The notes beneath the pieces were generated by a model. It searched no databases and was not told where the DNA came from. It saw only the letters and a program-made list of their open reading frames with translations. Both the position numbers and the translations under genes were made by a program. Positions 1 to 64,000 of a DNA stretch of 64,000 nt are shown one piece after another (the stretch's first letter is position 1; each line of letters opens with the position of its first letter). Source of the stretch: a virus; the IMG/VR virus record IMGVR_UViG_3300021356_000011, positions 1 through 64,000 of that record; one strand, given 5' to 3'.

Positions 1-1
1 C

Positions 2-190: not shown

Positions 191-200
191 CTTGCCTACA

Positions 201-230: not shown

Positions 231-264
231 CTTATGGAAAATATTTCACTCATGGATGATGTAT

Positions 265-3075
265 ATGAAGAGTTGGAAATACGAAAAAGACACCAGCACA
301 GGTGAGGTTTACGCTGTCTACCACAGTGTTCCTATCTTCAAAGAGCATACTGGGTCAGATGGGACGAAATATACCCAGGAATTGCTAGAGGCTATTGCTG
401 ACAACAACAACGACAGGATCGAAGAGACGGGTGACTACTGCCCTATCGTTGGTTGGCATACTCCATCAGACAATGATCCATCCAAAGACCCACCAATTAT
501 TGGGTTTGCTGAGAACTTTCGCGTAGAGAAGTTTGGTAAGAAGCAACCCAAGTGGTGTATCTATGCGACATTCAAGATCCGCAAGGACAGGCATGACTAC
601 TTTCGGGACCATCCTCGCCGTAGTGTTGAGATCTGGCCTGAAGATAAACCTGAGAATCGGTATATCGACCCTATTGCGGTGCTTGGTGCTGAAACCCCCA
701 GGCAGGACCTAGGCTTGGTCTATAGCAAGTCTGCGGCAGGAGAAGAGTCTTACATGTACTCTTCTGTCGCTGGTGGCGGGAATACTTATGTGCCTGGGGA
801 GGTGCAAAGGAACAGTAGTGATGAGGGTTATGACGCTGAGCTTTGGAACCATAGGGACATCCAAGAGGCCCAAGAGTACGATTCAGCAAAAACCAGCCAA
901 AGCCAAATTTCTGCAACTCGCAGATTAATTGACCAAATGCATGGTTGGGAGGAAGGCTCAGTAAACGCAGACATTGGCGGGGGTCGTTATGACAAGTATA
1001 CAAATGCGATGAAAGAAGAACACGGCGTCACTAGTCATGTCTATGACCCATTTAATAGGGATGACGAGCATAACGCCAAGGTAGCGTCAATAATTTCAGA
1101 CGGCAAGTCAGACACTGCTACTGTCAACAATGTTTTAAATGTAATCAAAGAGCCGGAAATCAGAGAGCATGTAATAAAGCAAGCAAAAAACGCAATCAAG
1201 GATGATGGGTACGCTTACTTTCTTATACACGTTGGGAACAAGAGCGGGGTAGGCGGTTCTCCAGAGGGGACAACTCAATGGCAAGAAAACCGTTACCCTG
1301 AAACTTACATGGAAGAAATAGAAAAGCACTTTGGAGATGTAAAAAGAAAAGGCAATCTAATCATTGCCAAAAAAGACAGCGAGTCTTTATCGAAGCAGCA
1401 GTATGACAAGCCAGGACCAAAAGATCCTCGCAGAACTCCTGCTCCCAAGAAGGACAGGGTCAAAGGCAGTAGCAAGAACCCCAAGGGATCTGCATCTAAA
1501 GCTAACGAGAAGATAGAGGTTAGCGACAAGACTGAAGCGAGTCTTAAGAAAAAGATGGAGACTCACAACAAGTCTGACAAAGGATCCAAGGCAACCATCG
1601 GTGCGTTGAAGAGCGTCTATCGCAGAGGTGCTGGAGCGTATAGCACAAGCCATGCACCTAACATGTCTAGGCATGGATGGGCCATGGCGAGGGTTAATGC
1701 ATTTTTAAAGCTGCTTCGTAGTGGTAAGCCTGACAATTCAAACTACACCCAGGACTATGACCTGCTTCCGAAGGGTCATCCCAAAAAGTCTAAGAACTCA
1801 AAAGGTGGCACAGCTATGGAATATGCAAAGGACGAAGAGGGTCAAGAGCCTGATAAGAATTACGCAACACTTGCCGCAGCCGCAGCTCCTTTTGTTGCTG
1901 ATCTCGTTAGCGGAATGGTGAGTGGTGGTGGCGACAAGAACGCTAAGAAGACTGGACCTAGACCAATTAGAAAACCTAGAGCCAAGGGCTTTAAGTTTGA
2001 TAAAGACGAGATGCCCCAGGACGTTCCTGGGGATGACGATGTTTTGGATGGAGATGATGAAATGGCATTAGACCAGCAATCCGTCCAGCAAATTGTTGAA
2101 GGACTTAAGCCTACTATCATCGACATCGTACAGGAAGAAATTGCTTCCATCGTCGGTGATCAAGGCATGGGTCCAGAGGACATGCTGGAAGATCAAGAGG
2201 TCGAAGTTGTTCCTGACGAAGAAGTCGAGGAAATGCTTGACGAAGAACCTGAAGAAGGTCGCATGGCTGAAGAGCCTGAAGAAGACGAGGAAGAGCCTGA
2301 GCGTAATGCGAAGGAAGACGAAGACGACCCTGAGAAAAATGCCAAGTGCGAATACGGCAAAGAGATGTTCGCAAAGATGGCAGAAAAGCATCGTCTTTAT
2401 GAGAAGGATGCGGATCACAAGGGTGCTTCTCAGTATATGGCTTCCATGGAAGAGGCGGATAAAAACGCAATGGATTCATACATGAAAAGCGAAAAGGCTG
2501 AAAGCCACGAGAAAGAGGCTTACGGTAAATGCTCTGACTACGGCAAGGACATGAAAGAGTCTTACAGCAAAGACAGTGAAGTTGCCGAGGCAGATAAGTA
2601 CCGCAAGGAACTGAAGCAGGAAGCTGACAAGTATTCCAAGCTTCAACAGCAGTATTCAAAACTTCAATCAGAACTGGTTGAAGCTAAGGATCAGTTGACT
2701 GAAGTTCGCAGGAGTGAGCGATACCACAAGATCGCTGATCGCTTGTCTAATCTCGAAGCTGAAGGTTACTCCTTCGACAAAGAGAAAGAACTTGAGTTCT
2801 GCATGCAACTGTCGGATGAACTGCGAGAAGAACATCTTGCAGAACGCATTCCACAGCAGTATGCGAAGTGCCCAGTTGGTGCCCCAATCCCAGTCGAGGA
2901 GAGCGAAGAGCTTAAACCGATTGAGCAGAAGAGCATCAAGTACAGCCGAGCAGCAAACCTTGCTACTCAGAAACTGCGTGCCCAAGGCAATAAAGGCGTA
3001 AGCTTTGACAAAGTCTTGAAGCACATGTGCGATAACGATACGGATGAGTGCCCCTCCGTAGAAGACCTGAAGTAA
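265..3075 (+). CDS. Prohead protease (Mu I-like) / scaffold polyprotein with inserted SAM-methyltransferase-like domain and a basic conserved head domain
   Basis: N-terminal protease motifs PIVGWH, RRSVEI, AVLGAETP. Insert with DIGGGRYD and NNVLNVI. Domain LKSVYRRGAGAY..SH..WAMARVNAFL (DUF5824-like). Acidic coiled-coil C-terminus. Lies upstream of decoration and capsid genes. Start ATG 265 is conserved in copy B. Confidence 0.8.
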   Translation: MKSWKYEKDTSTGEVYAVYHSVPIFKEHTGSDGTKYTQELLEAIADNNNDRIEETGDYCPIVGWHTPSDNDPSKDPPIIGFAENFRVEKFGKKQPKWCIYATFKIRKDRHDYFRDHPRRSVEIWPEDKPENRYIDPIAVLGAETPRQDLGLVYSKSAAGEESYMYSSVAGGGNTYVPGEVQRNSSDEGYDAELWNHRDIQEAQEYDSAKTSQSQISATRRLIDQMHGWEEGSVNADIGGGRYDKYTNAMKEEHGVTSHVYDPFNRDDEHNAKVASIISDGKSDTATVNNVLNVIKEPEIREHVIKQAKNAIKDDGYAYFLIHVGNKSGVGGSPEGTTQWQENRYPETYMEEIEKHFGDVKRKGNLIIAKKDSESLSKQQYDKPGPKDPRRTPAPKKDRVKGSSKNPKGSASKANEKIEVSDKTEASLKKKMETHNKSDKGSKATIGALKSVYRRGAGAYSTSHAPNMSRHGWAMARVNAFLKLLRSGKPDNSNYTQDYDLLPKGHPKKSKNSKGGTAMEYAKDEEGQEPDKNYATLAAAAAPFVADLVSGMVSGGGDKNAKKTGPRPIRKPRAKGFKFDKDEMPQDVPGDDDVLDGDDEMALDQQSVQQIVEGLKPTIIDIVQEEIASIVGDQGMGPEDMLEDQEVEVVPDEEVEEMLDEEPEEGRMAEEPEEDEEEPERNAKEDEDDPEKNAKCEYGKEMFAKMAEKHRLYEKDADHKGASQYMASMEEADKNAMDSYMKSEKAESHEKEAYGKCSDYGKDMKESYSKDSEVAEADKYRKELKQEADKYSKLQQQYSKLQSELVEAKDQLTEVRRSERYHKIADRLSNLEAEGYSFDKEKELEFCMQLSDELREEHLAERIPQQYAKCPVGAPIPVEESEELKPIEQKSIKYSRAANLATQKLRAQGNKGVSFDKVLKHMCDNDTDECPSVEDLK
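2062..3075 (+). CDS. Probable nested in-frame scaffold protein (Mu Z-like), MALDQQSV...
   Basis: GGAG 8 nt upstream of in-frame ATG 2062. Copy B has GGAGG 7 nt upstream of the equivalent ATG 62475, where homology resumes. Confidence 0.55.
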   Translation: MALDQQSVQQIVEGLKPTIIDIVQEEIASIVGDQGMGPEDMLEDQEVEVVPDEEVEEMLDEEPEEGRMAEEPEEDEEEPERNAKEDEDDPEKNAKCEYGKEMFAKMAEKHRLYEKDADHKGASQYMASMEEADKNAMDSYMKSEKAESHEKEAYGKCSDYGKDMKESYSKDSEVAEADKYRKELKQEADKYSKLQQQYSKLQSELVEAKDQLTEVRRSERYHKIADRLSNLEAEGYSFDKEKELEFCMQLSDELREEHLAERIPQQYAKCPVGAPIPVEESEELKPIEQKSIKYSRAANLATQKLRAQGNKGVSFDKVLKHMCDNDTDECPSVEDLK

Positions 3076-3113
3076 GCGGGCCTTTTAGGTTTTAGCCACT
3101 ATAGGAGATTGAC

Positions 3114-3509: not shown

Positions 3510-3558
3510 CCATTAGCTGTTTTGGACTAACAGAGAAAATTTGTACGGAGATTAAAAA

Positions 3559-4608: not shown

Positions 4609-4650
4609 TCGGTGCTTTAGGTTTTGCATCACTTCCCCTCTCGGTGATGC

Positions 4651-4685
4651 GGATGGGGGTGGTTTTCCACCCCTGTCCTTTTTTT
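4651..4685 (+). terminator. Rho-independent terminator after MCP
   Basis: GGATGGGGGTGG-TTTT-CCACCCCTGTCC followed by T7; preceded by a second hairpin GCATCAC..GTGATGC (4626-4650). Confidence 0.8.
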
Positions 4686-4710
4686 AGGTTTACACGCTAA
4701 GGGAAGACGA

Positions 4711-5268: not shown

Positions 5269-5269
5269 T

Positions 5270-5803: not shown

Positions 5804-5827
5804 TTGAAAATCCGAGAGGGGGAAGTG

Positions 5828-6277: not shown

Positions 6278-6411
6278 GGCTGGGAACAGCACATGCCATG
6301 TCTGGTTTAACAGAAGCTTACTTCATTCACATGTCAAAGACAGTTGAAGAAGGGAAAGCTCTCTGGGCTAAGTACAAAGCTAATCGGAAAAAGAAAACCG
6401 AGGTAAGTTAG
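6137..6411 (+). CDS. -1 frameshift extension of tail assembly chaperone (gpGT-like)
   Basis: The open -1 frame (ORF 6121..6411) is entered via A AAA AAC and ends immediately before the tape-measure ATG. Confidence 0.6.
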
Positions 6412-7440
6412 ATGGCAGGCAACATTGCTTCTGAAGTCACAAAGTTTCTAAAAGCTGAAGGGCAGAAACAGCTAAGGAATGTTGCGTCTGATGTTGTCGC
6501 TGGTGTAGTTGGTGGCAGCGGAGGCAGAAGGGCACAGGAGCAGGTTCGCCGGAGGAGCAACCTGTTGGGGATGGCGATGACTCCTGGCAGTGTGCTTACC
6601 CACGGAATCGCTAGAGGCTTTTCTGGTAAACTTCAAAAATACGCCACATCTGCTGGAGGCATGGTCGCCAAAGGTGCTACTGATGAATCTGGAGCAGCAC
6701 TGCAAGGCTCCATTGAGATGGCGAAGAATCAGGTGAACGCTTTCACCAACCTCTTCACTGCTCCTGGGATCAAAAGCATTGGCGAGTTCTTTAGTGTCAT
6801 GGCAGATGCACCGAAGAATGTCCTGTCTTTTGGTGAAGCATTACTATCTGTAACTGGGAAGCTGAAAGATGTCAGTCCTGCGTTTGCTGCTATTTCTGCT
6901 GAGCAGGAAATCCGGCAGTTGGAACGTGACATAAGAACTGGAGAGCAGACTGGAGGGTCAGCTACTGAGTTAAGCGAAGCAATGGAAGACTTCAAAGATT
7001 CAATGCTTCCAGTTCAGAACGAAATCTACAACACGACGGCAGAACTCGTTACAGATTTGATTCCAGTTGCAAAACAGATTTATGCAATCATGGGTCCATT
7101 CTTCAAGGCAGCAGCAACACTTCTTTCAGAAATTGTAAAAGTCCTTTCAAAAATCATGGTTCCGATATTAATCATGATTGTTGACACAATATTAAAAATG
7201 TTTGTCGCATTAAGGATAGTCGTCTCGGTCCTAGCGAGTGTTAGATTCCTTGGGGCACTTTCATCAGTGGCAGAAAAATTAGACCCAATAATAGAAACAT
7301 TGAATGGGATGCTGGATGGAATCCGTGATCTTAACGAAGAAGAAGACGAAGAAGAAAAGATGAATGCTCATCAAATCGCAGTTGCAGCGTTGAGAATGAG
7401 AACAAACGAAGTCACAGATCCAAGACCACCTGCCCCTTAA
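6412..7440 (+). CDS. Short tape measure protein
   Basis: Ala/Gly/Ser-rich helical protein with hydrophobic C-terminal stretch, directly after the G/GT frameshift pair. Confidence 0.55.
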   Translation: MAGNIASEVTKFLKAEGQKQLRNVASDVVAGVVGGSGGRRAQEQVRRRSNLLGMAMTPGSVLTHGIARGFSGKLQKYATSAGGMVAKGATDESGAALQGSIEMAKNQVNAFTNLFTAPGIKSIGEFFSVMADAPKNVLSFGEALLSVTGKLKDVSPAFAAISAEQEIRQLERDIRTGEQTGGSATELSEAMEDFKDSMLPVQNEIYNTTAELVTDLIPVAKQIYAIMGPFFKAAATLLSEIVKVLSKIMVPILIMIVDTILKMFVALRIVVSVLASVRFLGALSSVAEKLDPIIETLNGMLDGIRDLNEEEDEEEKMNAHQIAVAALRMRTNEVTDPRPPAP

Positions 7441-7462
7441 GTAACTCAATAGAAAGAACAGC

Positions 7463-9595: not shown

Positions 9596-9615
9596 ATAAT
9601 TACTGAGGAATAGAA

Positions 9616-11253
9616 ATGGCAATCAATTTCACTACGTTCTTTACGAAGTTTGGACATGCTGTCTATTCCGCAAAGAACTTGCTACAGAACACTGGTCCTG
9701 ACCAAGACACAGTCATTCAGAGCTTTGTTAATGACTTTGATTCTGAAAGTCTTAATGTCAAAAACGCTATTGATGGCTTGATCCCTAAGTTCAGACAAAG
9801 CCAAGCACAATCTCGTCAGGCTGTATCCAACGTCATCGTTGCTCCTATGCGTGCATTTATGACGCAGGAAATACGAGAAGACCTAGGGAAGACAGTCACA
9901 TTCAATGAGGCTATGACTGAGTTCTTAGATCAGCTTGACGCATCAGGCGATAGTGTTGAGAGCAGCACTGTCAGTTCTTCTGTTACAGCCGGTGGTGGCA
10001 ATACTGGTGACGGCGAGCTATTCATCTCGACTAAGTTTTATGATGGGACAGAGTCGCAGCTATTGATTGATGAAGACTTGCTGCTGACCTGCACGATTGT
10101 TGATCAGGATGGCAATCGTACATTTACTGGCAAGGGTGACGAGGCATACGCCAAGCTTGACGGTAACTATCCAGGTGGAACAGGCAGGAACTATTCAGTA
10201 GTTCCCAATCGTCTAAACAACAGCAACATCAACAACTTGCTAACATCTGCTAATTTCTCAACAGCAGATACCTTAGCGACATCTCAGCCTGCAAGCTGGC
10301 TTGCATATGATGCTGATGCGACAGGATCTCTGACTGATTATGTCACTCAAGACATTGAAATTACCAATACACCAACAGGCGGTTACTACAATATTGTTCT
10401 GTATGAGAAGGGCGGGACAAAAGCATTAGTATCGGAGAATATCTCATATGCTGCTAATGGTGATTCGGTTCAAGCCTCGCTTCGCAAGCTACCTGGGTAT
10501 TCACAAGTCACAGTCACATCAACAGGAACATCACCAGACTTTACTCATACAATCACATTTGTCGGCGTAGAGTATGCATATGCTGCCGTTGTCAGGGAAT
10601 TCCTAACTGGTGGTGGCGGGGCTCCCTACTCTGTTGTTTCTGCTTTAATCACTGATGGTGACTTCAGGACAGCAGGTCGATCACTAAAGATCACAGGTGA
10701 TGGGTCTGAACAGACGGATTACTACCAGAAGGTTCAAGTTGCGAAGAATACTGTTTACTTTGCTCATGCACTGATTAAAGAGACGACTGCAATCACAACA
10801 GGCACCCTTGGGTTATCTCTGGTGGATTCCCCAGGTGGTACAGTGCTTCAAGATCTTCAGGGCAATAATAACTCTGACACTGTCACACTTAGTAGTTTGA
10901 GTGCTGGATGGAATCACTTTGGTGTGTTCTTTAGAACTAGCGATGACTTACCAGAATCAGTCTATCTAAGACTCAACTGCCCAACTGCGATTGATGCGTC
11001 TGGGGTGCTTTGCATCGATTCTATTCGTTTGATCACTGCTGCACAGTTCTACTCCGGTGGACCTTACTACTGCATGTTTGAAGGTGACACAAACTTTGAG
11101 TTGAATGACACGTTTACTATTGCAGTCAACAACGACTACTCTGGTGAATTGCAGCAGTGGTTTGATCGAATCTACGATGTAAGAAATTTCCGTCGTCAGC
11201 TACCACATTCAGGGTCACCTACTTACGCTGACTCGTTAATCACAGCTTCGTAG
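9616..11253 (+). CDS. Virion structural protein with carbohydrate-binding-like domain
   Basis: Thr/Gly-rich; CBM-like segment (SLKITG..YQKV..NTVYF..W.HFG..F.T..LRL..IDSIRL). Confidence 0.5.
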   Translation: MAINFTTFFTKFGHAVYSAKNLLQNTGPDQDTVIQSFVNDFDSESLNVKNAIDGLIPKFRQSQAQSRQAVSNVIVAPMRAFMTQEIREDLGKTVTFNEAMTEFLDQLDASGDSVESSTVSSSVTAGGGNTGDGELFISTKFYDGTESQLLIDEDLLLTCTIVDQDGNRTFTGKGDEAYAKLDGNYPGGTGRNYSVVPNRLNNSNINNLLTSANFSTADTLATSQPASWLAYDADATGSLTDYVTQDIEITNTPTGGYYNIVLYEKGGTKALVSENISYAANGDSVQASLRKLPGYSQVTVTSTGTSPDFTHTITFVGVEYAYAAVVREFLTGGGGAPYSVVSALITDGDFRTAGRSLKITGDGSEQTDYYQKVQVAKNTVYFAHALIKETTAITTGTLGLSLVDSPGGTVLQDLQGNNNSDTVTLSSLSAGWNHFGVFFRTSDDLPESVYLRLNCPTAIDASGVLCIDSIRLITAAQFYSGGPYYCMFEGDTNFELNDTFTIAVNNDYSGELQQWFDRIYDVRNFRRQLPHSGSPTYADSLITAS

Positions 11254-11262
11254 GAGTGAGCT

Positions 11263-11799
11263 ATGGCTTATCCAGACTGGAACGGATTTGCTGACGGAAC
11301 AGTAGTTCAGTCGTCAAAGATGAGCGACATCTTGCTGGCGATAAAGAACCGCATGATCCAGTGCATACCTGATGCAACAGAAAGCACATGCAAGATCACC
11401 AATGATCCCTCCTATCGGATCACACCATCTGATCTTCGATGCTTCAACATCACTCCATCACCTCAGTCCCAGGTAGACCAAGGTGCATGGGATGGTGGTG
11501 CTAACTTGCAGTTGACTGTCAGGACTCGGGTCATCATCACAGTGTTCCTGCCAAACTCTCTCGATGACCCAAGAGAGACTGAATACTTTCATACCGCAAG
11601 CATGTCAGTGCATAACTCCAGGATCGATGTCCTCAAAGCCTTGAGCTTCTGGAATGAGTCTGGCGATAAAGGTACGTTCCTCCTGAACGATCCACTCTCC
11701 CCTGCTGAATGGCACTTCACTAAAGACAAGTCATCTGGCGACATACAGATCGCATTCGATTTGGAGTACGACGAAGACTTGGAGGTCGATTGTGACTGA
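11263..11799 (+). CDS. Putative tail completion/neck protein
   Basis: 178 aa in tail operon; size and composition fit the tail terminator class. Confidence 0.35.
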   Translation: MAYPDWNGFADGTVVQSSKMSDILLAIKNRMIQCIPDATESTCKITNDPSYRITPSDLRCFNITPSPQSQVDQGAWDGGANLQLTVRTRVIITVFLPNSLDDPRETEYFHTASMSVHNSRIDVLKALSFWNESGDKGTFLLNDPLSPAEWHFTKDKSSGDIQIAFDLEYDEDLEVDCD

Positions 11800-13861
11800 G
11801 TTCTCTCCATATAAAAGTGGGTTGCAAATAAACTCTCCAAACAGATCTGCTGACGAAGGTGCTTTCGTTCATTTCATGGACGACCTCGAAGGTGACCTAA
11901 CGAGAATCTTTTTCAACAGGCTTGGTAACCCGTCGTACAACTTGGGACCAGAGACTTATCACGACAGTAGCTACAACTCCTACGAAAATAACAACGGCTT
12001 TACGCTTCCATCATCAAGCAAGTTTAGATTCAGGGACGCAAAGGCTGCACGATTCAATGAACTAGCTTGCCCTATTGATAACCAGCGTAGGGCTCACGCC
12101 TACTTCCTTGTTTATATGCAAGGAGACATATACGAAAACTTCAGAGTTGGTGACACCCTTACTATCTGGCAGGGAGGTGCCATATTTGAATTGCCATGGG
12201 GATATGGCGTTCTGTCAGTGGAAAGCAAGACTCGGGTTGAGTATGCAGACAAAGAAATGGTAGGAGGGCGTGAGTACACATGGGAATCCTCCCAAGAAGA
12301 AACATCCACTGAAAAAGAGATCTTCATTCAAGATCGCATATTAGATTTGCTGGCACCTGAAGGTTTCCAAAGAGATTTTCAAATAGCAATACTGGAAGTG
12401 TCTGACAGAGTTACAGGCTCTAGCACACCTTCAGCTAACTTCCCTACGAATAGCAAAACCACCATTAACACAACATGGAACACTCTTGCTGCTCATAAAT
12501 TTCAAATTCAGCATAACCTAGATCCTCTGACTTCAGATGAACCTGTTATCCAGGACTTAAGGGAAAAGCAATTCTTTACGGTTCATCCCGCACCTGCAAG
12601 CAGGATGTCAGAAGGCGAAAAGGTTGACATGTACCATCTTGCCAATGGCTATTTTGGCAAGGGGATGTTTTACATTAAGCCTAGCGATTGCATGAGGAAT
12701 CACTCAAGTGTTGCAGGTGTTGATGGTCTTGAGTTCACCAAGGTGCCATCTTATGTGGATCAACAGTATGGACCTGGGCTGGGGATCTATCTAAGAAACC
12801 AGGATCGCACTTCAGATTATTACAACATACAGCAATGCATCACTAAGGTGAACGGATTTAAGTGGGTTGAAAATCTATTAAGCAGCCCCTTGGAAGACAT
12901 CTATGAGAGAACGTATCTAAGCAACGATGATACGCCTGAGCTTACTCATGAATTGGGAATCGACACCCTGATCGGAGAGCATTCTTGGTGGGACACGGAA
13001 GCAAGCAGCTATGCGGGTGCAGTTAGTTCAGATCCATTTTTTAGAGTAAACAGTACAACTGGAACACTAAAGCAATATGGCCCAGCGAGGGATGCTATTG
13101 AAGAAGGCTTTGCAGCACTCATCCCATATTCAAAGATGCTCCGCAAATCTCCATTCACTGTCCAGGTTTTGTTTGATGTCAGCAGACGATCTCAGCACCA
13201 TAAATGGAGAATCAACTTAAGAGATTACTGCATCACAAGGAGAATGTTTCCTGAGACTTTATACATACGCTTTGACAACTTTGCGTTAAATAAAAACACG
13301 ATGACAGTCATTGGTGAAGACGCAACTGACAACAGCGATGGAAATGATCGTCAATTACTCGTGGTGCCAGGATATGAACCTAACGAAGATGGAGGTGACA
13401 TCACAAAATACAACATGCTAGAGATAGACGTTGTACCAATGAATCCCGACATCTTCCCTACATCGCTGCCGATCATGTGGTCATATGAAGCATTCGATTC
13501 AGTGTATAACGCTCGCACTGGTAATGAGCAGCTTGCAGTCCAGAGGCTGACAGGTAGCTACGTCGATTACGGCTATGAACTTATGACAGTTGGTCAAGAC
13601 TTCTACTTCGATGATGGAACGAATACAGCAGAGACAAACTACCCCATCACCCAGGTAGACGAAGAGTATAGCAAGTGTTACCGAGAAAACTCTCTCAGGT
13701 TAGTCAGCACATACTCTGAATGGAAGTTTCCAACTCACTTGTCTGAACTTCCAACGATCTCAACAGACAGGGATTCAACAACTGCGTTTGGAATCAGGGA
13801 GCCCTCTGGTCATCGCATCATAGTAACCAACATCAACTGTGTCGTTCCTTCATCACCATAG
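11792..13861 (+). CDS. Hypothetical tail protein
   Basis: 689 aa ORF overlapping the previous stop, SD GGAGG; tail operon context. Confidence 0.5.
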   Translation: MTEFSPYKSGLQINSPNRSADEGAFVHFMDDLEGDLTRIFFNRLGNPSYNLGPETYHDSSYNSYENNNGFTLPSSSKFRFRDAKAARFNELACPIDNQRRAHAYFLVYMQGDIYENFRVGDTLTIWQGGAIFELPWGYGVLSVESKTRVEYADKEMVGGREYTWESSQEETSTEKEIFIQDRILDLLAPEGFQRDFQIAILEVSDRVTGSSTPSANFPTNSKTTINTTWNTLAAHKFQIQHNLDPLTSDEPVIQDLREKQFFTVHPAPASRMSEGEKVDMYHLANGYFGKGMFYIKPSDCMRNHSSVAGVDGLEFTKVPSYVDQQYGPGLGIYLRNQDRTSDYYNIQQCITKVNGFKWVENLLSSPLEDIYERTYLSNDDTPELTHELGIDTLIGEHSWWDTEASSYAGAVSSDPFFRVNSTTGTLKQYGPARDAIEEGFAALIPYSKMLRKSPFTVQVLFDVSRRSQHHKWRINLRDYCITRRMFPETLYIRFDNFALNKNTMTVIGEDATDNSDGNDRQLLVVPGYEPNEDGGDITKYNMLEIDVVPMNPDIFPTSLPIMWSYEAFDSVYNARTGNEQLAVQRLTGSYVDYGYELMTVGQDFYFDDGTNTAETNYPITQVDEEYSKCYRENSLRLVSTYSEWKFPTHLSELPTISTDRDSTTAFGIREPSGHRIIVTNINCVVPSSP

Positions 13862-54427: not shown

Positions 54428-57364
54428 ATGAGCTACCCTAACAACCCACCAGTCCCAGCGAGTATCACCGTCGATGCCACTGCGTCGATTAACAGTGGGT
54501 TGGTGGGGTTCTGGCCCTTGACGGATGGAACTAGTACGAATGCAACAGACCTGTCAACGGGTGGTAATGACGGGACGCTTGTGAGTACTGCTGCGTGGGT
54601 TAGTTCCACCAAGGGTTCGGCTGTAGAACTAGATGCCACTGGTGAATATGTAGACACAAATTTAAGTGGTTCCTATGACATCAGAAGCCAAGAACTATCA
54701 ATCTCAGGGTGGGTTAAATGTGGTACGGAAACGCACACGCAGAGATTCGTTTCAGCTAGAGGTGGAACGACAGGTGCAGGCAGTGAGTATCCACTCGACC
54801 TCTGGACTGTGGCTACGACAGGGAAATGCCGTGTCGCTGCCTACGATGGGACTAGCTCTATCAATGCGGATTCAACCACAACTATTGGGGATGACAATTG
54901 GCATCATATCTGTGGTGTTGCTGATGCCACAAACCTTTATATCTACGTTGACGGCGTACTAGAAAACCAGGTGGCTATTTCGGGGCTATCTAGTTCGAGT
55001 GCTGGGGCCAATGATTTTTATATTGGTCAGACACAGGCTGCAACTGACTCAACGAGGCAGCTTCTTGGCGAGATCCAAAACGTCAGAATCTACAACCGAG
55101 CCCTAACCGCCACCGAAGTCGCAGAACTCTATTCTGTACCGTGGACAGGCACCGACTACGTAGCCCAGAACCTAACGCCCGACACGCCAATCGCCATGGG
55201 TGTAGATCCTAATCACAGCCTGTCGTCTGGCCTCGTAGGATACTGGCCTTTGTCTGAGGGCAGTGGGACGGTAGCGAAGGACTTAACGGGGACCGCAGAC
55301 CTAACATCAACAAACCCTAACTGGGGCGAATCTAGTATTGGTACAGTTGGTGTTTTTCCTAACTCATCAACCGCATCGTTTATCGCATCGTCGTATGTCC
55401 CCGTTTCCGGGGCAGGCGAGTTGTCGGTGAGTGCTTGGTTTAAAACGACATCCGGTGGCGCTGGCAACATTGTGACATGGGGGACATCTGCCGCGGGGCA
55501 AGTGTTTGAGCTTAATGTTGAGGGTGGAGTGCTTTGGTCACGAAATCATAGTGGCAATACCGTATCTGGAGGGAGTGGTTTAAATGACGGAGAATGGCAT
55601 GTCGTAACCTGGACGAAACCAGGAAACGGTACAACATCAGACATAAAAATGTTTGTTGACGGGAAACAGTTATCCGTAACGGCAGGTGGGAGTACCACAC
55701 TCAGTTTTGGAACATCGTCACCGCTGGAAATAGGAGACAGAGGGTACAGTTCTAGTAAATCGTTTGATGGTGAAATTCAAAATGTTCGTGCCTATAACCG
55801 AGTCTTATCAGCTACCGAAGTAGAAGCCCTCTATAACGAGCCCTGGGCAGGCGTAGTGACAGCGAAGTCAGCACCACCGCAGTATCTCACAGTTGACACC
55901 GCAGATAGTATCAACACAGGATTACAGGGCTTCTGGCCCTTGTCTGACAACGATACGACGGCTGTAGATTTGAGCGGGAATGGGAATGACGGGACTGAAA
56001 GTGGTGGCGTTACGTGGTCAGCTGATGATAAGGGACTGAGTGCTAGTTTTGATGGGGTAGATGATAGGTTTGTTCTGAGTAATGGACTTTCGCGTAATCA
56101 AACCGCGATGACTATTTCTGCTTGGGTTAAGCCAGATGTCGTTAGCACTAACACGATGGTTTATTATGAGTCGAATAACACAGGAACCCAATTCACTCGT
56201 ATAAACCTTGTGGTGAACAGCGGAAGTGTTCAAACTGGTGGTCGTGACGACGATGGCGATAGCTTTACGACGTTTGCGCAGTCTAACACAGGTATTGTTG
56301 CAACCAATATTTGGCAGCATCTAGTCGCGGTGGTTGATCCAACTGGTGGTGGGTGCAAGGTGTATTTAGACGGGGAGAATGTAACTAATACATCTAACAA
56401 CACTGGAGACGGGTTCCCAGACACTGACCCTTTGTACTATGCGATTGGTTCACACTCATCAAATTCGTACACTTTCGATGGCAATATCCAAAACGTCAGA
56501 GTCTATAACCGAGCCCTGTCAGCGGCAGAGGTATCCCGCCTCTACCAAGATCCTTGGGCAGGCACTGACCGAGCGATTGAACCATCACCCACGGCTAAAG
56601 ACCTCGACACATCCAGCAGCCTGACAACCAACCTCGTTGGCTGGTGGCCTCTCACTGAGTATGGGCCACAGGATACGCTGGCTTATGATATCAGTGGCAA
56701 TGACTACCACGGCGTAGCTAATGGTGGTGTGCAACGGCAGTTTACTGATACGGTACGGGCTGCGAACCTTGATGGGGTGGATGATAGGTTTGACCTGTCA
56801 ACGCTTGGGGATTACGAAGCACACTCAAACCCGTTGACAGTCAGTATGTGGTGTTACCTGCGGGACGACTCCCTGCAACAGTATTGGTTCAACAAGGCAG
56901 ACTCAGACGCCATGTTCTTTGCATGGACAAACGTCAATGGAAGTTTGGAATTTAAGATTCGGGATCTGACCGTTGTGAACGCCACGGGCAAGATGTACAG
57001 CGGATTAGCTACTAACATTCTCAACCGATGGGCTCATTTGGTTTTTGTATCTTCGGGGACCGATTACACGCTTGCCTCCAACCTTGATGTCTATTTGGAC
57101 GGTGTGGTTCAGACTGCGACCTCGTCAACTAATGGCGACGGGTACACAAGCGGAGAGTCTTCCGTAGGAATGCTTACGCTAGGCGGTAGGTATTATGACA
57201 ACAACCGTAATATGGATGCAATGTTCCAAAACGTCAGAGTCTACAGTCGAGCCTTATCAGCCGCAGAAGTTCAAACACTGTATGATGATCCTTGGGTCGG
57301 ATTGGCTACCGACAGTTTAGTTTACGCATATTACTCCGCTGCCTTCTTGCAGCGTTTAGGCTAA
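54428..57364 (+). CDS. Protein with four tandem LamG domains
   Basis: Four units GLVG.WPL ... QNVR.Y.RAL.A.EV..LY..PW.G. Confidence 0.88.
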   Translation: MSYPNNPPVPASITVDATASINSGLVGFWPLTDGTSTNATDLSTGGNDGTLVSTAAWVSSTKGSAVELDATGEYVDTNLSGSYDIRSQELSISGWVKCGTETHTQRFVSARGGTTGAGSEYPLDLWTVATTGKCRVAAYDGTSSINADSTTTIGDDNWHHICGVADATNLYIYVDGVLENQVAISGLSSSSAGANDFYIGQTQAATDSTRQLLGEIQNVRIYNRALTATEVAELYSVPWTGTDYVAQNLTPDTPIAMGVDPNHSLSSGLVGYWPLSEGSGTVAKDLTGTADLTSTNPNWGESSIGTVGVFPNSSTASFIASSYVPVSGAGELSVSAWFKTTSGGAGNIVTWGTSAAGQVFELNVEGGVLWSRNHSGNTVSGGSGLNDGEWHVVTWTKPGNGTTSDIKMFVDGKQLSVTAGGSTTLSFGTSSPLEIGDRGYSSSKSFDGEIQNVRAYNRVLSATEVEALYNEPWAGVVTAKSAPPQYLTVDTADSINTGLQGFWPLSDNDTTAVDLSGNGNDGTESGGVTWSADDKGLSASFDGVDDRFVLSNGLSRNQTAMTISAWVKPDVVSTNTMVYYESNNTGTQFTRINLVVNSGSVQTGGRDDDGDSFTTFAQSNTGIVATNIWQHLVAVVDPTGGGCKVYLDGENVTNTSNNTGDGFPDTDPLYYAIGSHSSNSYTFDGNIQNVRVYNRALSAAEVSRLYQDPWAGTDRAIEPSPTAKDLDTSSSLTTNLVGWWPLTEYGPQDTLAYDISGNDYHGVANGGVQRQFTDTVRAANLDGVDDRFDLSTLGDYEAHSNPLTVSMWCYLRDDSLQQYWFNKADSDAMFFAWTNVNGSLEFKIRDLTVVNATGKMYSGLATNILNRWAHLVFVSSGTDYTLASNLDVYLDGVVQTATSSTNGDGYTSGESSVGMLTLGGRYYDNNRNMDAMFQNVRVYSRALSAAEVQTLYDDPWVGLATDSLVYAYYSAAFLQRLG

Positions 57365-57376
57365 GGAGAAATAACA

Positions 57377-59005
57377 TTGGCTACCTCTGGAGCATATAAA
57401 AATCAGGCGTTTACTTTTAACTACGCCCTGCCAAAGAGCAGCGACCCTACTGCGTTCTTCACTGGCCCATTTGCAAGTGGAGAGGTGACGTATCGTCTAC
57501 GAAACGGTTCAACGTTGGGTGCTGCTGTGTCCTTGACTCCATTGCCGACGTTTCCAACGCCAAGCACTGGACCGTTCACTGTTGCATTGACTAGTTCAAT
57601 GATGAATGCGGATGAGGTTATCATCGAGTTCATTGCATCTACCAGTGATTTTGCAACTCGTACAGTTTCGATTGTTACAGAACCAACGCCCAGCGATATT
57701 CTGGAAGTACAGCAAACAGCAGTTAGCGGCGTAGCAGATTTCAAGGCGACTGGTTTTAGTACGTTTGATCCTGCTGCTGATACAGTTGCCAATGTCACAA
57801 CGGTGGGATCAGTCAGTGGATCTGTTGGATCTGTTGTTGCGTCTGTGACTGCTGGAACTGTTACGGATAAGTCGGGTTACTTCATCAGTGGATCACTAAC
57901 AACACTCGATGCACTGGAGAACATTGCAGCTACAGACATTGTATCGGCAGGACCGATTACGACTCTCAGTGGTGCAGTTGTTAATGTCGATACGGTCGAT
58001 GTGACTACTACGAACTCTGACATGCGTGGTACTGATAATGCTGCAACGCAAACATCGGTTAACACGATTGATACTGAAGTAGGCCAGATCAAAGCGAAAA
58101 CCGATCAGTTGACATTTACCGTAGCTAATCAAGTCGATGCGAACGCATTGACTGGGGCTAGTGATGCAACAGCATCCAACCAGACGACGATCATCAATCA
58201 TCTGACAGATGTTAAAGGTGCTGGGTGGACTAGCACAGACAACCTTGCTGAGATCACCGAGGATGTGACTGGTTTGAATGGTGATGCCATGCGAGGGACG
58301 GATGGTGCCAATACTACAACGCCTCCAACAGAGGCACAGATCTATGCTGAGTTTGTAGCAGATAGTAACGAAGATGCATTTAAGGCAGATGTGAGTTCAT
58401 TGGCAACTAGTGCCGAAGTCTCTGATCTCAACAACCTGTCATCGAGTGATGTTGCAGCGGCGGTTTGGAATGCTGCCTATGCGAGTTACAACTCGGCAGG
58501 CACCTTCGGCAAGCTCATGGACATCATCCGCAAAAGCAACTTGACCATTGAGGGAAGTGTTGCTGGCACAGGAACGCCGACCACAACAGAGTTTCATACA
58601 GACTTGACCTATGTGGACGATGCTTTTGATGAGCAGATTCTGCTGTTTGTGTCAGGGGCATTGGAGGGTGAGTCACGACCTATCAATCGAAACTTCCAGA
58701 CTGACGGAAGAGTTGTACTGGATGAAGCATTCACCTCTCCACCTACTAGTGGCGATGAGTTTGTCATATTGCCTGAGCATGTTCATAGTCTGGCATCTAT
58801 CTCAGATTCCATACTCAGTCGCAATGTTAGCAATGTGGAAGCTAGTCTTGATGAGCATACGCTTGGAACGATTGTGCTATGTATCCTTGAATCAGTACGA
58901 TCTGGGACTACATGGACGATTAAGCGAAGCGATTCCACTACGACACATGTGACTAAAACATTAACTCTTGATGCATCCGCCCAGCCTGTGATTGGAGTTG
59001 ACTGA
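57377..59005 (+). CDS. Tail fibre-like structural protein
   Basis: Thr/Ser/Asp-rich; DVAAAVWN, IKAKTD, DMRGTD repeats. Confidence 0.55.
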   Translation: MATSGAYKNQAFTFNYALPKSSDPTAFFTGPFASGEVTYRLRNGSTLGAAVSLTPLPTFPTPSTGPFTVALTSSMMNADEVIIEFIASTSDFATRTVSIVTEPTPSDILEVQQTAVSGVADFKATGFSTFDPAADTVANVTTVGSVSGSVGSVVASVTAGTVTDKSGYFISGSLTTLDALENIAATDIVSAGPITTLSGAVVNVDTVDVTTTNSDMRGTDNAATQTSVNTIDTEVGQIKAKTDQLTFTVANQVDANALTGASDATASNQTTIINHLTDVKGAGWTSTDNLAEITEDVTGLNGDAMRGTDGANTTTPPTEAQIYAEFVADSNEDAFKADVSSLATSAEVSDLNNLSSSDVAAAVWNAAYASYNSAGTFGKLMDIIRKSNLTIEGSVAGTGTPTTTEFHTDLTYVDDAFDEQILLFVSGALEGESRPINRNFQTDGRVVLDEAFTSPPTSGDEFVILPEHVHSLASISDSILSRNVSNVEASLDEHTLGTIVLCILESVRSGTTWTIKRSDSTTTHVTKTLTLDASAQPVIGVD

Positions 59006-59148: not shown

Positions 59149-59495
59149 TGTCACTTAAAAGATATGCAACAGCGAGCCTTACGCTTGGCAGCACAAGGTT
59201 AGTTCATCATGACATGACAGATGCATTGGAGGTATCAGAAACCATAGCCTCGGTCACTGTCACTGATGTTACAGATAATGGATCTTCAACTGGCGATTTG
59301 TCCATCACGGCTGTCGCTGTGGATGCAGTTGGTTATACGCCTCCATGTTCTCAAACGGCTGTTGCTGCGAATAAGGCTATTCAATTTTCTATTCTTACAT
59401 CTTCATCAACAGACAAGTCTTACAAGCTAAAGATCAGGTGTGTCACAACCGGAGGGGTTGTTGTGGACTATTTATATGTGTCTTTTTCTGATTGA
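59148..59495 (+). CDS. Small Ig-like virion protein (putative)
   Basis: D....L...ETI.S.....Y...I...TT.G pattern; allele of 2..190. Confidence 0.55.
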   Translation: MSLKRYATASLTLGSTRLVHHDMTDALEVSETIASVTVTDVTDNGSSTGDLSITAVAVDAVGYTPPCSQTAVAANKAIQFSILTSSSTDKSYKLKIRCVTTGGVVVDYLYVSFSD

Positions 59496-59505
59496 CATTG
59501 CCTGA

Positions 59506-59535
59506 TTCGTCGCTAAATGAAGATGACTGTATAAT
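59506..59535 (+). promoter_or_regulatory. Putative head-operon promoter (copy B)
   Basis: TTCGTCGCT-N12-CTGTATAAT, same as 201-230. Confidence 0.55.
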
Positions 59536-59570
59536 TTTCAACTAAATTTCGCTTTCATGGATGATTGCAT

Positions 59571-62500
59571 ATGAAGAGTTGGAAGTACGAAAAAGACAAT
59601 GTGACAGGCGAAATCCTTGCTGTTTACCATAGTGTTCCTATTTTTAAGGAGCATACTGGGTCAGATGGTACTGAATACACCAAGGAATTGCTTGAAGCCA
59701 TTGCTGACAACAATAACGACAGGATCGAGGAAACTGGTGATTTCTGTCCTATCGTTGGTTGGCATACTCCATCAGACAATGATCCATCCAAAGACCCGCC
59801 AATCATTGGGTTTGCTGAAAACTTTCGTGTAGAGAAGTTTGGTAAGAAGCAGCCCAAGTGGTGCATCTATGCGACGTTCAAGATCCGCAAGGATAAGCAT
59901 GGATACTTTCGGGACCATCCTCGCCGCAGCGTTGAGATCTGGCCTGAAGATAAACCTGAGAATCGCTACATCGACCCTATTGCGGTGCTTGGTGCTGAAA
60001 CCCCCAGGCAAGACTTAGGCTTGGTCTACAGCAAGTCTGCGGCAGGGGAGGAGTCTTATATGTACTCTTCCGTTGCTGGTGGCGGGAATACCTATGTGCC
60101 GGGCGAGGTTGAGAAGAGTGCAAAAAAGCCTTCGGTAAAAGAGAGAAGAGCAGCATTTGGAGACAGCAAGAGAGTTAAAGCTCCAATCGTCCCAGAAGGC
60201 AAAGAACCAAATTCAAGAGATATTCGCAATCATACCTATGAAATGGTCAAAGCATTCGCTGATGCTTACCCGGTTGATGCGACTCTTAAAGAAGGTGAAC
60301 TTCCCAAAGAGGCAAAGAAAAAGGGAAGAGGAGTTCAACCGGGAGATAGAGTTGCTGTTAGAAGAAACCTGCATGAAAGCCACGCCAATTGGCTTAGGAA
60401 AAACCTTGGTGAAGAAAATTACCAAGAGCTTCTTGAAAGTGTAAAAGCTGACAGGATGGGTGTAACTCCTCAGACAATTCATTCAGCAGTTAAGGGTGGC
60501 AGTGCTGATTTGATAGGTGCTGGGGAAACTGACGAGCAGATTAAAAAGAATATAAGTGAGCTACACAGTACAAGCTGGGGCAATCACCCTCTGGTTCACC
60601 TTAGCGATGTTGATTTTGTTGTCCATGAACTGTCCAGATCAGATATAGCCAAGGGAGTTACTAATAAGAAACCCATGGCATCTGCTAGAGGAAGCTATGA
60701 GCATAGCAATCCTGAAAAGTTTAAGGACTTCCTTGAAAGAAATGCGGGTGATATCCAAGAGATTAGATTTAATCCGATGACGGATCATCACTTTGTTGAT
60801 CTCAATTCACATGCGGTCAAGGGTGCGAAGGAAGCTACCCTGTTCAATGATCGTGTCTATGCAACTGGCGTTGAGTACCTACCTCAAAAGGACTCTGACG
60901 GCTATGTGGCTTATCCGGATGATCCAGACGGCAAGGGTTTTTCTAGGATAGCAGAGGAGTCAGGAACCCTTCATAAGTTTAATAAGGAACAGTATGACAA
61001 GCCGGGACCAAAAGATCCAAGGCGAACTCCTGCTCCTAAAAAGGATCAGGTCAAGGGTAGCGACAAGAATCCCAAAGGATCTGCGTCCAAAGCCAATACT
61101 AAAATTGAGATAAGCGACAAGACCGAAGCCAGCCTGAAGAAAAAGATGCAGGAGCATAATAAGAAAGGCAAAGGCTCCAATGCAACTTTGGGTGCATTGA
61201 AAAGTGTTTATCGCAGAGGTGCTGGAGCGTACAGCAGCAGCCATCATCCCAAAATGTCTAGGCATGGATGGGCCATGGCAAGAGTGAATGCATTCCTAAC
61301 ATTGCTTCGCACTGGCAAGCCCAGTAACTCCAATTACAAGCAAGACAACGACCTGCTGCCGAAGGGGCATCCTAAGAAGTCTAAAAATAGCAAGAAGCAT
61401 GCAGGCATGATTGAAAGCTTGCAGAAATATGCAAAGGAGATGGGAATGCTTTCTCATGAAGAGCTTGGTGGTGAGGGATATACGCATGCTCATAAGTGGG
61501 GCTACCGCCCTAAGGCTGAACAATCTCAGAAGTATGCGGAAGCTGGGCGCCGAGCTTTCAATGAACCTCATGCTGCAACAGCTGAGATCGCAAGAAAATA
61601 TATTGAAGCGAATCGTGATCTCATTGGTGACGCTCACGCTCCTCGACAGATCTCGAAACTTGATCCATCAATTTCAAAGCGAATTGCCGCAGAATATATC
61701 TCAGGGAAGCATGACCCTTCTGACCCTAAGGTCATGAGAGCTTATCAGGCCATGGCAGATGAATCTGCCAAACAAATGCAAGCTTTGACTGATGCTGGCT
61801 ATAAGGTTGAGATGTACCCAGAAGGTGCGGAGCCTTACCCCAATTCGCAGGCGTTGATTGATGATCTAAATCAGAACAAGCACCTCTGGATCTTTCCTAC
61901 CGAAGATGGTTTTGGCGAAGAGCCAATTACCGATGAGGAAAGAAAGATCAACCCGCTGCTGCAAGACTCTGGGTTTAAGGATGCCAATGGCAAACCCATG
62001 CTATTGAATGACACCTTTAGGGCGGTGCATGACTTCTTTGGCCATTCGGAACTGGGCAATGCATTCGGACCTGTCGGTGAGGAGAACGCATGGCAACTGC
62101 ATAGTCGCATGTTCTCACCTGAAGCCCGAAGGGCCGTGACCACAGAGACTCGCGGTCAAAATAGCTGGGTAAACTTTGGACCTCACATTGTCAGAGAAGA
62201 TGGTAGCGTTCCGAAAAGGAGTGACCCGGACTTCAAGCCACTCAAAGATCGCCCATTTGCTGACCAGAAGATGTTTCTATTGTCAGACGACACTGTGTTT
62301 GGCACTGACGATCACGAAGGCGAGCCATTGGAGAAGATGCGAAAGAAAGGCCCGCGAGTCTTTAAGCTTCCTCCCAAGAGCAGGCCAAAAATGTCCAAGG
62401 AAGGCCAATATGCAAAATACGAAGAAACCGAGGATGGTCCTGGGTTGGATTCTTTATTAAATGGAGGAACTGACATGGCACTTGACCAACAGTCAGTCAC

Positions 62501-63455
62501 TCAGATTATCGAAGGCCTCAAGCCGACCATCATCGACATTGTGCAGGAAGAACTGCCAAAGATGCTTGGTTACGACGAGGCCTCTGATGAAATGATTGAT
62601 GACATGGATCAGGAGGAAATGCCTGAGGAAGAGCCTGAAGATGAACTTCAGGAAGAGCCTGAAGATGAGGTCTTGCGGGAAGAACCTGGGGACGAAGATG
62701 AAGACGAAGTTGAGCGGAATGCCAAATGCGAATACGGAAAAGAAATGTTCGCAAAGATGGCAGAGAAGCACAACTTATATGGAAAAGATGCTGACCACAA
62801 AGGTGCATCTCAATACATGGCATCCATGGATGAAGCTGATCGGAATGCTATGGGCATGTACATGAAGAGTGACATGCCGAGCAAGGAAGAGAAAGACGCT
62901 TACGCCAAATGCAATGAATGTGAGAAGAACATGAAAGAAAACTACAGCAAAGCTTCAGAAGGCAGCGAGGCTGATAAGTTCAGAAAGCAACTTGATGAGC
63001 AGGCTGACAAGTTTTCCAAACTTCAGCAGCAATATTCGAAGCTCCAATCTGAGCTTGTTGAAGCTAAGGATCAGCTGACGGAAGCTCGACGAAGCGAGAA
63101 GTATCACAAGATTGCTGACCGCCTCTCCTTGCTTGAAGCCGAAGGCTATGTCTTTGATAAAGAGCAAGAGCTTGAGTTTTGCATGCAGCTGAACGACGAT
63201 CTTCGAGAAGAACATTTGAATGACCGCATCCCCAGCAAGTACACGAAGTCCCCGAGTGGACAAGTTGTACCTGTTGAGAAGTCAGAGGTCATTACTCCTG
63301 TTGAGCAGAAGAGCGTCAAGTACAGCAAGTCTGCACAACAAGCAACTATCGCTTTGCGTTCCCAGGGAGCCAAAGGCGTCGATTATAAGTCCGTTCTCAA
63401 TTGGATGATTGAAAACGATACGGAAGTGTGCCCCACCGTAGAAGACCTGAAGTAA
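59571..63455 (+). CDS. Prohead protease / scaffold polyprotein, allele B with two different cargo domains
   Basis: Protease, DUF5824-like and scaffold parts match allele A; inserts at ~60111-60983 and ~61395-62474 are largely unrelated to allele A. Confidence 0.8.
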   Translation: MKSWKYEKDNVTGEILAVYHSVPIFKEHTGSDGTEYTKELLEAIADNNNDRIEETGDFCPIVGWHTPSDNDPSKDPPIIGFAENFRVEKFGKKQPKWCIYATFKIRKDKHGYFRDHPRRSVEIWPEDKPENRYIDPIAVLGAETPRQDLGLVYSKSAAGEESYMYSSVAGGGNTYVPGEVEKSAKKPSVKERRAAFGDSKRVKAPIVPEGKEPNSRDIRNHTYEMVKAFADAYPVDATLKEGELPKEAKKKGRGVQPGDRVAVRRNLHESHANWLRKNLGEENYQELLESVKADRMGVTPQTIHSAVKGGSADLIGAGETDEQIKKNISELHSTSWGNHPLVHLSDVDFVVHELSRSDIAKGVTNKKPMASARGSYEHSNPEKFKDFLERNAGDIQEIRFNPMTDHHFVDLNSHAVKGAKEATLFNDRVYATGVEYLPQKDSDGYVAYPDDPDGKGFSRIAEESGTLHKFNKEQYDKPGPKDPRRTPAPKKDQVKGSDKNPKGSASKANTKIEISDKTEASLKKKMQEHNKKGKGSNATLGALKSVYRRGAGAYSSSHHPKMSRHGWAMARVNAFLTLLRTGKPSNSNYKQDNDLLPKGHPKKSKNSKKHAGMIESLQKYAKEMGMLSHEELGGEGYTHAHKWGYRPKAEQSQKYAEAGRRAFNEPHAATAEIARKYIEANRDLIGDAHAPRQISKLDPSISKRIAAEYISGKHDPSDPKVMRAYQAMADESAKQMQALTDAGYKVEMYPEGAEPYPNSQALIDDLNQNKHLWIFPTEDGFGEEPITDEERKINPLLQDSGFKDANGKPMLLNDTFRAVHDFFGHSELGNAFGPVGEENAWQLHSRMFSPEARRAVTTETRGQNSWVNFGPHIVREDGSVPKRSDPDFKPLKDRPFADQKMFLLSDDTVFGTDDHEGEPLEKMRKKGPRVFKLPPKSRPKMSKEGQYAKYEETEDGPGLDSLLNGGTDMALDQQSVTQIIEGLKPTIIDIVQEELPKMLGYDEASDEMIDDMDQEEMPEEEPEDELQEEPEDEVLREEPGDEDEDEVERNAKCEYGKEMFAKMAEKHNLYGKDADHKGASQYMASMDEADRNAMGMYMKSDMPSKEEKDAYAKCNECEKNMKENYSKASEGSEADKFRKQLDEQADKFSKLQQQYSKLQSELVEAKDQLTEARRSEKYHKIADRLSLLEAEGYVFDKEQELEFCMQLNDDLREEHLNDRIPSKYTKSPSGQVVPVEKSEVITPVEQKSVKYSKSAQQATIALRSQGAKGVDYKSVLNWMIENDTEVCPTVEDLK

Positions 63456-63496
63456 ACGGGGCCTTGTAGGTCTAGCCACAACTAAGGAGATACACG

Positions 63497-63895
63497 ATGG
63501 CTGATACCTTTTCCTTCAAGGCTGGTGGGAACATTGCACCTAGCCGAATCATTGCTCTTAGCGATGCCTTCACTGTGACCCAAGCTGGTGCCACAGATGA
63601 TGATGACTTGCTAGGAGTGTCCGCTGAAAGCACGAAAGATGCTCCGGGTCTTTCTGGTGCAAGCACCAACCATGCAGAATCGGGCGATCCGGTTCAATAC
63701 TATGGCCCTGGTCAGGTTTGCTTGGTTGAAGCAGGTGCTTCGATTACCGCTCCTGCTCTTTGCACCGCAGATGCCAACGGTCGAGCCGTAGCTGCAACGA
63801 CTGGCGAACGTGCCGTTCTTCGAGTTTTCGAAGACGCTGGTGCGTTGGGTGAGAAGGTTCGAGCATTAGTCATTGATCCTATTGATCTTGACTAA
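63497..63895 (+). CDS. Capsid decoration protein, allele B
   Basis: Homologous to 3114..3509. Confidence 0.7.
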   Translation: MADTFSFKAGGNIAPSRIIALSDAFTVTQAGATDDDDLLGVSAESTKDAPGLSGASTNHAESGDPVQYYGPGQVCLVEAGASITAPALCTADANGRAVAATTGERAVLRVFEDAGALGEKVRALVIDPIDLD

Positions 63896-63934
63896 TTTCC
63901 ATGGATGAACATTTGAGAAACGGAGTTTAATAAC

Positions 63935-64000
63935 ATGGCTGCTGCTTTTCCCGGTCAATTCAATACTTACATTCCAAGTACGGAAGCGACCGACAATTTG
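63935..64000 (+). CDS. Major capsid protein allele B (5' partial)
   Basis: MAAAFPGQFNTYIPSTEATDNL vs MASAPGQFNTYVPSTESTNNL at 3559. Confidence 0.8.
   Translation, partial: MAAAFPGQFNTYIPSTEATDNL

Follow-up and report, generated by a model that had tools for sequence, protein, structure and literature searches.

We have analyzed a window of 64 kb of viral DNA (the whole stretch, 64,000 nucleotides), which is the start of the 74.6-kb IMG/VR virus record IMGVR_UViG_3300021356_000011. The subject of this analysis is a module encoded near the end of the window within a long open reading frame (ORF B), and named here HDxxGH after its motif. The module belongs to a very large family, so far without a name, of enzyme-like domains of ~250 residues that phages and some plasmids build into proteins probably delivered together with their DNA. 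ORF B, referred to below as the carrier, joins a prohead-protease-like domain, several exchangeable modules and a conserved C-terminal region. On balance we favor the interpretation of HDxxGH as a capsid-packaged, protease-released, metal-dependent hydrolase effector. That it is a packaged enzymatic effector of some kind we consider likely; that the enzyme is a metal-dependent hydrolase, as its conserved residues suggest, is given slightly better than an even chance.

The HDxxGH module and its family

The initial annotation of this DNA, made from the sequence alone, placed a domain of ~300 amino acids (aa) at positions 61395-62474, a range that corresponds to 360 residues (aa 611-970). A domain is indeed encoded there, but the domain proper is shorter, at ~250 residues, and the range takes in the linkers on both of its sides (Table 1). 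The motifs then quoted (HDxxGH, GEENAW..H and ADQK), together with the flanking KYAK/KYAE and KMRK/QYAK, are all present in the ORF B translation where they had been reported. A HMMER search against 1.84 billion representatives, with matches clustered at 50% identity, recovered 4,671 clusters at E <= 1e-3 and 2,583 at E <= 1e-30.

Conservation was scored in 33 stand-alone members of the family and 344 domain copies, and residues are given in P0001 numbering. About 30 positions, mostly polar, are conserved in more than 98% of these sequences. They comprise Y727, Q737, G745, Y758, D767 and G784 in the first part of the domain; N815, D816, F818, R819, H822, D823, G826 and H827 in the HDxxGH region; F834, G838, E839, E840, A842, H846, A854 and A857 around the GEE motif; E861, T862, R863, G864, Q865, N866, S867 and N870 in the stretch that begins at E861; and Q901 and K902 near the C-terminal end. 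With thousands of homologous clusters and near-invariance in the 344 copies, the His/Asp/Glu set is not due to chance, and the initial proposal, which would have failed had these residues varied among homologues, withstands this check. Even the distant gp103 of Mycobacterium phage Catera retains NDxFRAVHDFFGH..GE..H..ETKGQNS.

The initial annotation mentioned similar motifs in large virion proteins of phages, and a survey of domain contexts is in keeping with this. In most matches the module lies in the middle of phage "polyvalent" proteins, large many-domain polypeptides of 2,000-4,500 aa, while some matches are stand-alone forms of 250-400 aa; the median length of the proteins that hold the module is ~1,900 aa and the largest has 4,560 aa. 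Domains that share proteins with HDxxGH are LPD38, LPD23, Kinase-PolyVal, ParB_N, RadC, DUF3293 and TPR. The family is encoded by 214 phage records and 4 plasmids, and solo versions are found adjacent to virion genes. Among its members are a "large polyvalent protein" of Planktothrix phage Pag-Yong1, gp16 of Octadecabacter BD virus 1 (2,986 aa, encoded between portal/lysozyme genes and a tailspike gene), and gp103 of ~200 Bxz1-type mycobacteriophages, which is encoded inside the head-gene block. The gp103 gene of Catera (PHROG 3170, Bixzunavirus) is flanked by major head and head decoration genes; its product matches the family profile with E = 2e-39 and carries the same motifs, although it differs from the ORF B module in being stand-alone (418 aa) and in lacking the beta-hairpin insert.

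Polyvalent proteins are packaged and injected (Iyer, Burroughs, Anand, de Souza and Aravind 2017; PMC5512222). The HDxxGH module resembles their components in its occurrence mainly in giant proteins, beside the first five of the domains listed above, in its solo forms among virion genes, in its distribution over phages and a few plasmids, and in the prediction that it is packaged and acts early. No Pfam LPD model matches the module, and the family may correspond to one of the 2017 LPD domains that have no Pfam model (e.g. LPD19 or LPD21). Although it is among the commonest conserved modules of giant phage polyvalent proteins, the family has no name, no Pfam or NCBIfam model, no structure and no paper. 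Pfam searches at E <= 10 gave nothing for the domain alone or for the 33 family members, and weak rows for YdjC, MATCAP and M27 were dismissed as noise. No match to the domain was found in NCBIfam, or in the PDB by sequence or profile. Matches in the ESM Atlas are unnamed viral clusters only, the PHROGs match is phrog_3170 ("unknown function", E = 1e-17), and a literature search on the HDXXGH motif or DUF3293 found no paper. A separate feature of the giant proteins is a recurrent pair: in 11 of them (P0140 and ten others) a zincin with the motif HEVFH lies directly C-terminal of the HDxxGH module.

Predicted fold

An AlphaFold2 (AF2) model of the domain, made from the 33-sequence alignment, has a pLDDT of 93.3 and a pTM of 0.90. 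Its elements follow in the order two helices; strand, helix, strand; a beta-hairpin; and three successive helices, with a sheet of four strands. The three last helices bear, in turn, HDxxGH, GEENAW..H and TTETRGQNSWVNFG, and the invariant E839 and E840 are thus located on the helix that follows the HDxxGH motif. A fold search had been recommended in the initial annotation. Foldseek found no PDB chain below E 0.5 for this model, and a search of BFVD returned uncharacterised viral proteins only; the fold may be a new one. Several zincins (ArdC, abylysin, PprI, NleC) are among the weak Foldseek rows, as are aromatic amino-acid hydroxylases; these rows are leads only.

The zinc site of M49 dipeptidyl peptidase III, HEXXGH ... 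EEXR(K)AE(D) with the two motifs 22-55 residues apart (PMC5667867), provides an instructive comparison. Both systems have a hexapeptide of the form H-acid-x-x-G-H and, on a helix further along, an EE doublet, and M49 is a precedent for the holding of a metal by H-x4-H. They differ in that the HDxxGH module has Asp in place of Glu, in the spacing from HDFFGH to EENAWQ, which is 11 residues instead of 22-55, and in size, the module having ~250 aa and M49 being a two-lobe enzyme of ~700 aa. There is no match between them in sequence or fold, and the likeness is an analogy and not membership.

The carrier and its exchangeable modules

The N-terminal domain of the carrier has an assemblin fold. Two of its residues, H67 and S122, are invariant among 39 sequences and H30 is almost so; their equivalence to the catalytic residues of gp21 is presumed. 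No Pfam S78 or S80 match was found for this domain. BLASTP comparisons and a module map indicate that the orthologues of the carrier have the N- and C-terminal parts in common, with between 0 and 3 modules inserted between them. There are none in L005 (523 aa, 2551-4122) and L006 (584 aa, 5061-6815), and in such cargo-less relatives the C-terminal region abuts the protease domain almost directly. A methyltransferase-like module and DUF5824 are found in the second long frame of the window (ORF A), DUF5824 and HDxxGH in P0004, and a variable module, DUF5824 and HDxxGH in P0003 and ORF B. P0005 has HDxxGH and another module, and in P0006 HDxxGH is placed ahead of the protease. In a quick maximum-likelihood (ML) tree the HDxxGH copies from protease carriers form one clade, which is nested among the copies from polyvalent proteins. 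A tblastn search with the N- and C-terminal parts against 50,697 cultured phage records gave no match.

Within the window, residues 1-186 of ORF B align by BLASTP with the 939-residue ORF A at 92% identity, residues 472-615 (DUF5824) with ORF A residues 378-521 at 83%, and residues 926-1296 with ORF A residues 564-939 at 58%. Residues 187-471 and 616-925 have no counterpart in ORF A in this comparison. The absence of the HDxxGH domain from the other allele, as noted initially, is thus upheld: ORF A has only a short low-complexity linker in the second slot.

Each of eight carriers contains 5-10 copies of the tripeptide Y-[A/S/T/H/Q]-K, where 0.4-1.2 would be expected (6-16-fold enrichment), and the observed number was reached in 0 of 2000 shuffles for every one of the eight. 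The motif recurs within the C-terminal region. Other copies are placed where the protease domain ends and at the borders of modules, such as YSK 155, YAK 622 and YAK 949 in ORF B and those at positions 485, 604 and 639 in P0005. We infer from this pattern that Y[AS]K could be the cleavage-site code of the carrier's own protease.

Prohead proteases of T4 and SPN3US process internal head proteins, which are ejected (PMC10052503). In comparison with T4 gp21, HK97 gp4 and herpesvirus assemblin, the carrier is unusual in its cargo. In T4 (the internal proteins, or IPs, and Alt) and SPN3US (the gp245 substrates) the cargo proteins have genes of their own and bear propeptides, whereas the carrier has its cargo fused in cis within the protease gene, and this cargo differs from one close relative to the next. 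The site motifs of the T4-like proteases are Glu-based, in contrast to the candidate Y[AS]K of the carrier. Among polyvalent proteins, assemblin-like peptidases were reported at C termini only (PMC5512222); here the order is protease, modules and C-terminal assembly region, and the layout of the carrier is therefore a variant. This layout would show the route by which a phage lineage exchanges capsid-delivered enzymes, and the carrier architecture is a possible natural template for the loading of proteins into phage heads.

Table 1. Features of the carrier locus and of its second copy (window coordinates, + strand)
Feature	Coordinates	Strand	Remarks and basis
ORF A, diverged second carrier copy	256..3075	+	without HDxxGH module; slot 2 at ~1804-2061; open frame, BLASTP
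ORF B, carrier gene, 1296 aa	59565..63455	+	probable true start ATG 59571; open frame; orthologues P0003-P0006 begin MKSW
Prohead-protease-like domain, N-terminal, aa 1-152	59565..60020	+	invariant H67 (59763) and S122 (59928)
Variable module 1, aa 187-471	60123..60977	+	differs from allele A; no BLASTP alignment to A
DUF5824 module, aa 472-615	60978..61409	+	PF19141, E 1.3e-5; BLASTP
Linker before HDxxGH domain	61410..61547	+	QKYAK (YAK 61428-61436), QKYAE (61530)
HDxxGH domain proper, aa 662-910	61548..62294	+	homologue alignment limits; AF2
NDTFR	62007..62021	+	coordinates verified
HDFFGH (H822, D823, G826, H827), model helix 4	62028..62045	+	H, D, G and H in 342-343 of 344 copies
GEENAWQLH (G838, E839, E840, H846), next helix	62076..62102	+	verified
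ETRGQNSWVNFG (E861-G872), most conserved stretch	62145..62180	+	ETKGQNS form in Mycobacterium phage Catera gp103
ADQK (Q901, K902), C-terminal conserved motif	62259..62270	+	verified
Linker after HDxxGH domain	62295..62489	+	KMRK (62334), QYAK (62406-62417)
Conserved C-terminal acidic/coiled-coil carrier region	62490..63455	+	BLASTP to L005 orthologue; module map
Head scaffolding protein gene, downstream of carrier	63497..63895	+	phrog_673, E 5e-16

A cellular cassette with SAH-hydrolase-like and DUF3293 proteins

Twelve of the 75 genome loci that hold the module contain a conserved cassette of an S-adenosylhomocysteine (SAH)-hydrolase-like (SAHH-like) protein, HDxxGH and DUF3293. These are L028 (4805-7141), L074 (5842-8227), L022, L025, L036, L037, L040, L044, L045, L046, L062 and L063, and they come from 5 phyla, among them Pseudomonadota, Actinomycetota, Cyanobacteriota and Myxococcota. 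The reading frames of the cassette overlap, or all three parts are fused in a single frame (L046, L022). The SAHH-like protein matches AhcY across both domains, far under the equivalog cut-offs (TIGR00936 1e-23; PDB 3ce6 1e-15). SAH hydrolases act on adenosyl nucleosides. The HDxxGH copies of the cassettes form one clade in the quick ML tree (SH-aLRT 99). In this cellular branch of the family HDxxGH is in every case linked to, or fused with, both partners, and DUF3293 is also fused immediately beside the HDxxGH module in six phage proteins. This partnership narrows the search for a substrate.

Proposed function and alternatives

In the carrier, an N-terminal assemblin-type Ser/His protease is followed by up to three exchangeable modules and then by a C-terminal region whose probable role is to anchor the polyprotein inside the procapsid. 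The polyprotein would co-assemble into the procapsid, and the protease would cut at or near the Y-[A/S/T]-K motifs flanking the modules, releasing a piece of ~37 kDa (roughly aa 625-951). The freed piece would be kept in the head, exit with the DNA and act in the host at the onset of infection. Its metal would be coordinated by two His of a single helix, H822 and H827, in an H-x4-H arrangement like that of the M49 HEXXGH, with E839 or E840 of the following helix as a further ligand. The residue that activates water would be D823, H846 or E861, and an anionic substrate would be held by R819, R863, K902, Q865, N866 and S867. As a tentative guess, the target may be a small molecule that contains a nucleoside or nucleotide, such as an adenosyl compound or a signaling nucleotide, and not a protein. 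Such a substrate is favored over a peptide by the SAHH-like partnership, the three invariant basic residues and the many Asn, Gln, Ser and Thr.

Several points weigh against this interpretation. The terms "hydrolase" and "metal" derive from residue identity, since no solved fold or profile matches, and the meeting of H822, H827 and E839 at one site is presumed from sequence. The activity, packaging and structure of every family member are predictions, and the ideas that the freed piece stays in the head and is later ejected into the host are assumptions taken from other phages. Since Y[AS]K is also abundant within the C-terminal region, its role may lie in assembly or binding instead of cleavage. 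The tie to the SAHH-like protein and DUF3293 is limited to one cellular clade, and neither partner is encoded in the window. Finally, the contig that displays both alleles may itself be a chimeric assembly.

The suggestion in the initial annotation of a metal-dependent enzyme is plausible and in part supported; its two proposed affinities, zincin-like or HD-like, are hypothetical. HD-domain phosphohydrolases have H...HD...D motifs in an all-helical fold; for the module no PF01966 match was found at E <= 10, no HD structure is among the fold matches, and the model includes the four-stranded sheet. Alternatively, the module could be a divergent zincin-like metallopeptidase (MPTase), kin to the HEXXXH clade of polyvalent MPTases, which cuts the carrier polyprotein or a protein of the injected host. 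We consider this unlikely. In place of the HEXXH or HEXXXH of zincins the module has H-D-x-x-G-H, whose Asp is present in 343 of 344 copies, and hhalign comparisons of HDxxGH with five zincin clades of the same giants (HEFGH, HEIQH, HEAFH, HEYLH, HEMAH) gave values below 6%. A 97.8% match to the HEVFH group is an artefact, because the segment extracted for that group overlaps the end of the HDxxGH domain directly upstream of the zincin. A role of the module as a substitute for a processing zincin is ruled out, since canonical HExxH motifs co-occur in 46% of the large proteins that hold the module (127 observed vs 3.9 expected).

H-D-x-x-G-H also recalls the iron-binding H-[ED]-x-x-G-H of aromatic amino-acid hydroxylases, and a non-heme Fe(II) enzyme, an oxygenase or similar with a 2-His-1-carboxylate site, would account for the invariant H-x4-H and downstream Glu. 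Chains of Phe/Trp hydroxylases appear four times in the weak Foldseek list (2v27, 2v28, 1mlw, 3hf6), with E values of ~2, and we regard this assignment as quite improbable. Hardly more credible is a non-catalytic module, i.e. an internal head protein that is structural, binds DNA or acts as a sponge, and whose conserved residues are needed for folding or to bind a ligand that is not turned over. Phages do have sponges for immune nucleotides, no activity is known for the family, and a domain packed in the head has a high copy potential. However, ~30 invariant polar or charged residues, among them three His, two Asp and three Glu, in 4,671 clusters from many phyla are typical of active sites, and the operon and fusion tie to the SAHH-like enzyme suggests a pathway step.

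The confident predicted fold with no solved counterpart and the invariant catalytic-looking residues make the family a well-defined target in the search for a new enzyme activity at the first moment of infection. Small stand-alone versions in cultivable hosts and phages (Enterovibrio, Actinophytocola, mycobacteriophage Catera) make it testable. A fuller and more speculative version is also conceivable: HDxxGH might be a new metalloenzyme superfamily with a fold unseen in the PDB, injected by phages against a metabolite or immune signal of the host that contains an adenosyl group or a nucleotide and that the enzyme would destroy or modify; the cellular kin of the module might carry out the same step in an undescribed three-enzyme pathway with the SAHH-like and DUF3293 proteins; and in this phage lineage the head protease gene might be a plug-in rack, its slots bounded by Y[AS]K, through which injected enzymes of this kind are exchanged.

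Two copies of the locus and neighboring genes

The last 15 kb of the record (window 59306-64000 and record 64001-74605, the latter L009) are collinear with its own first 12-15 kb (window 1-12000), with 68-88% identity. This collinear end repeat implies that the ORF A and ORF B "alleles" are one locus read twice. Most likely the contig wraps a genome of ~59 kb into a second strain, as a chimeric assembly; a genuine duplication is a less likely source of the two copies.

The first slot holds different modules in the two alleles. ORF B aa 340-433 (60582-60863) weakly match the Mycobacterium phage L5 gp82-like family (Phage_L5_gp82, PF25735, E 2e-4; phrog_586), and ORF A aa 239-325 (~970-1230) are weakly similar to methyltransferases (Methyltransf_23, E 6e-4). 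DUF5824, with the motif YRRGAGAYS..HGWAMARVNAF, is a constant cargo of both alleles (ORF A copy at 1387-1818) and of several relatives. The slot-2 linker of ORF A contains a hydrophobic Ala/Gly-rich stretch, ATLAAAAAPFVADLVSGMVSGGG (~1861-1935, ORF A aa 536-560), that has no counterpart in allele B.

No PHROG function was assigned to the 542-aa ORF directly upstream of the carrier (57377-59005) or to the 349-aa ORF that follows the scaffolding gene, and for this reason the labels "portal" and "major capsid" for these two ORFs are unconfirmed. A 978-aa ORF (54428-57364) matches phrog_8510, "virion structural protein", with E = 2e-57. The scaffolding gene, like the carrier, is present in a second copy, at 3114-3509 (phrog_673, E 4e-15).
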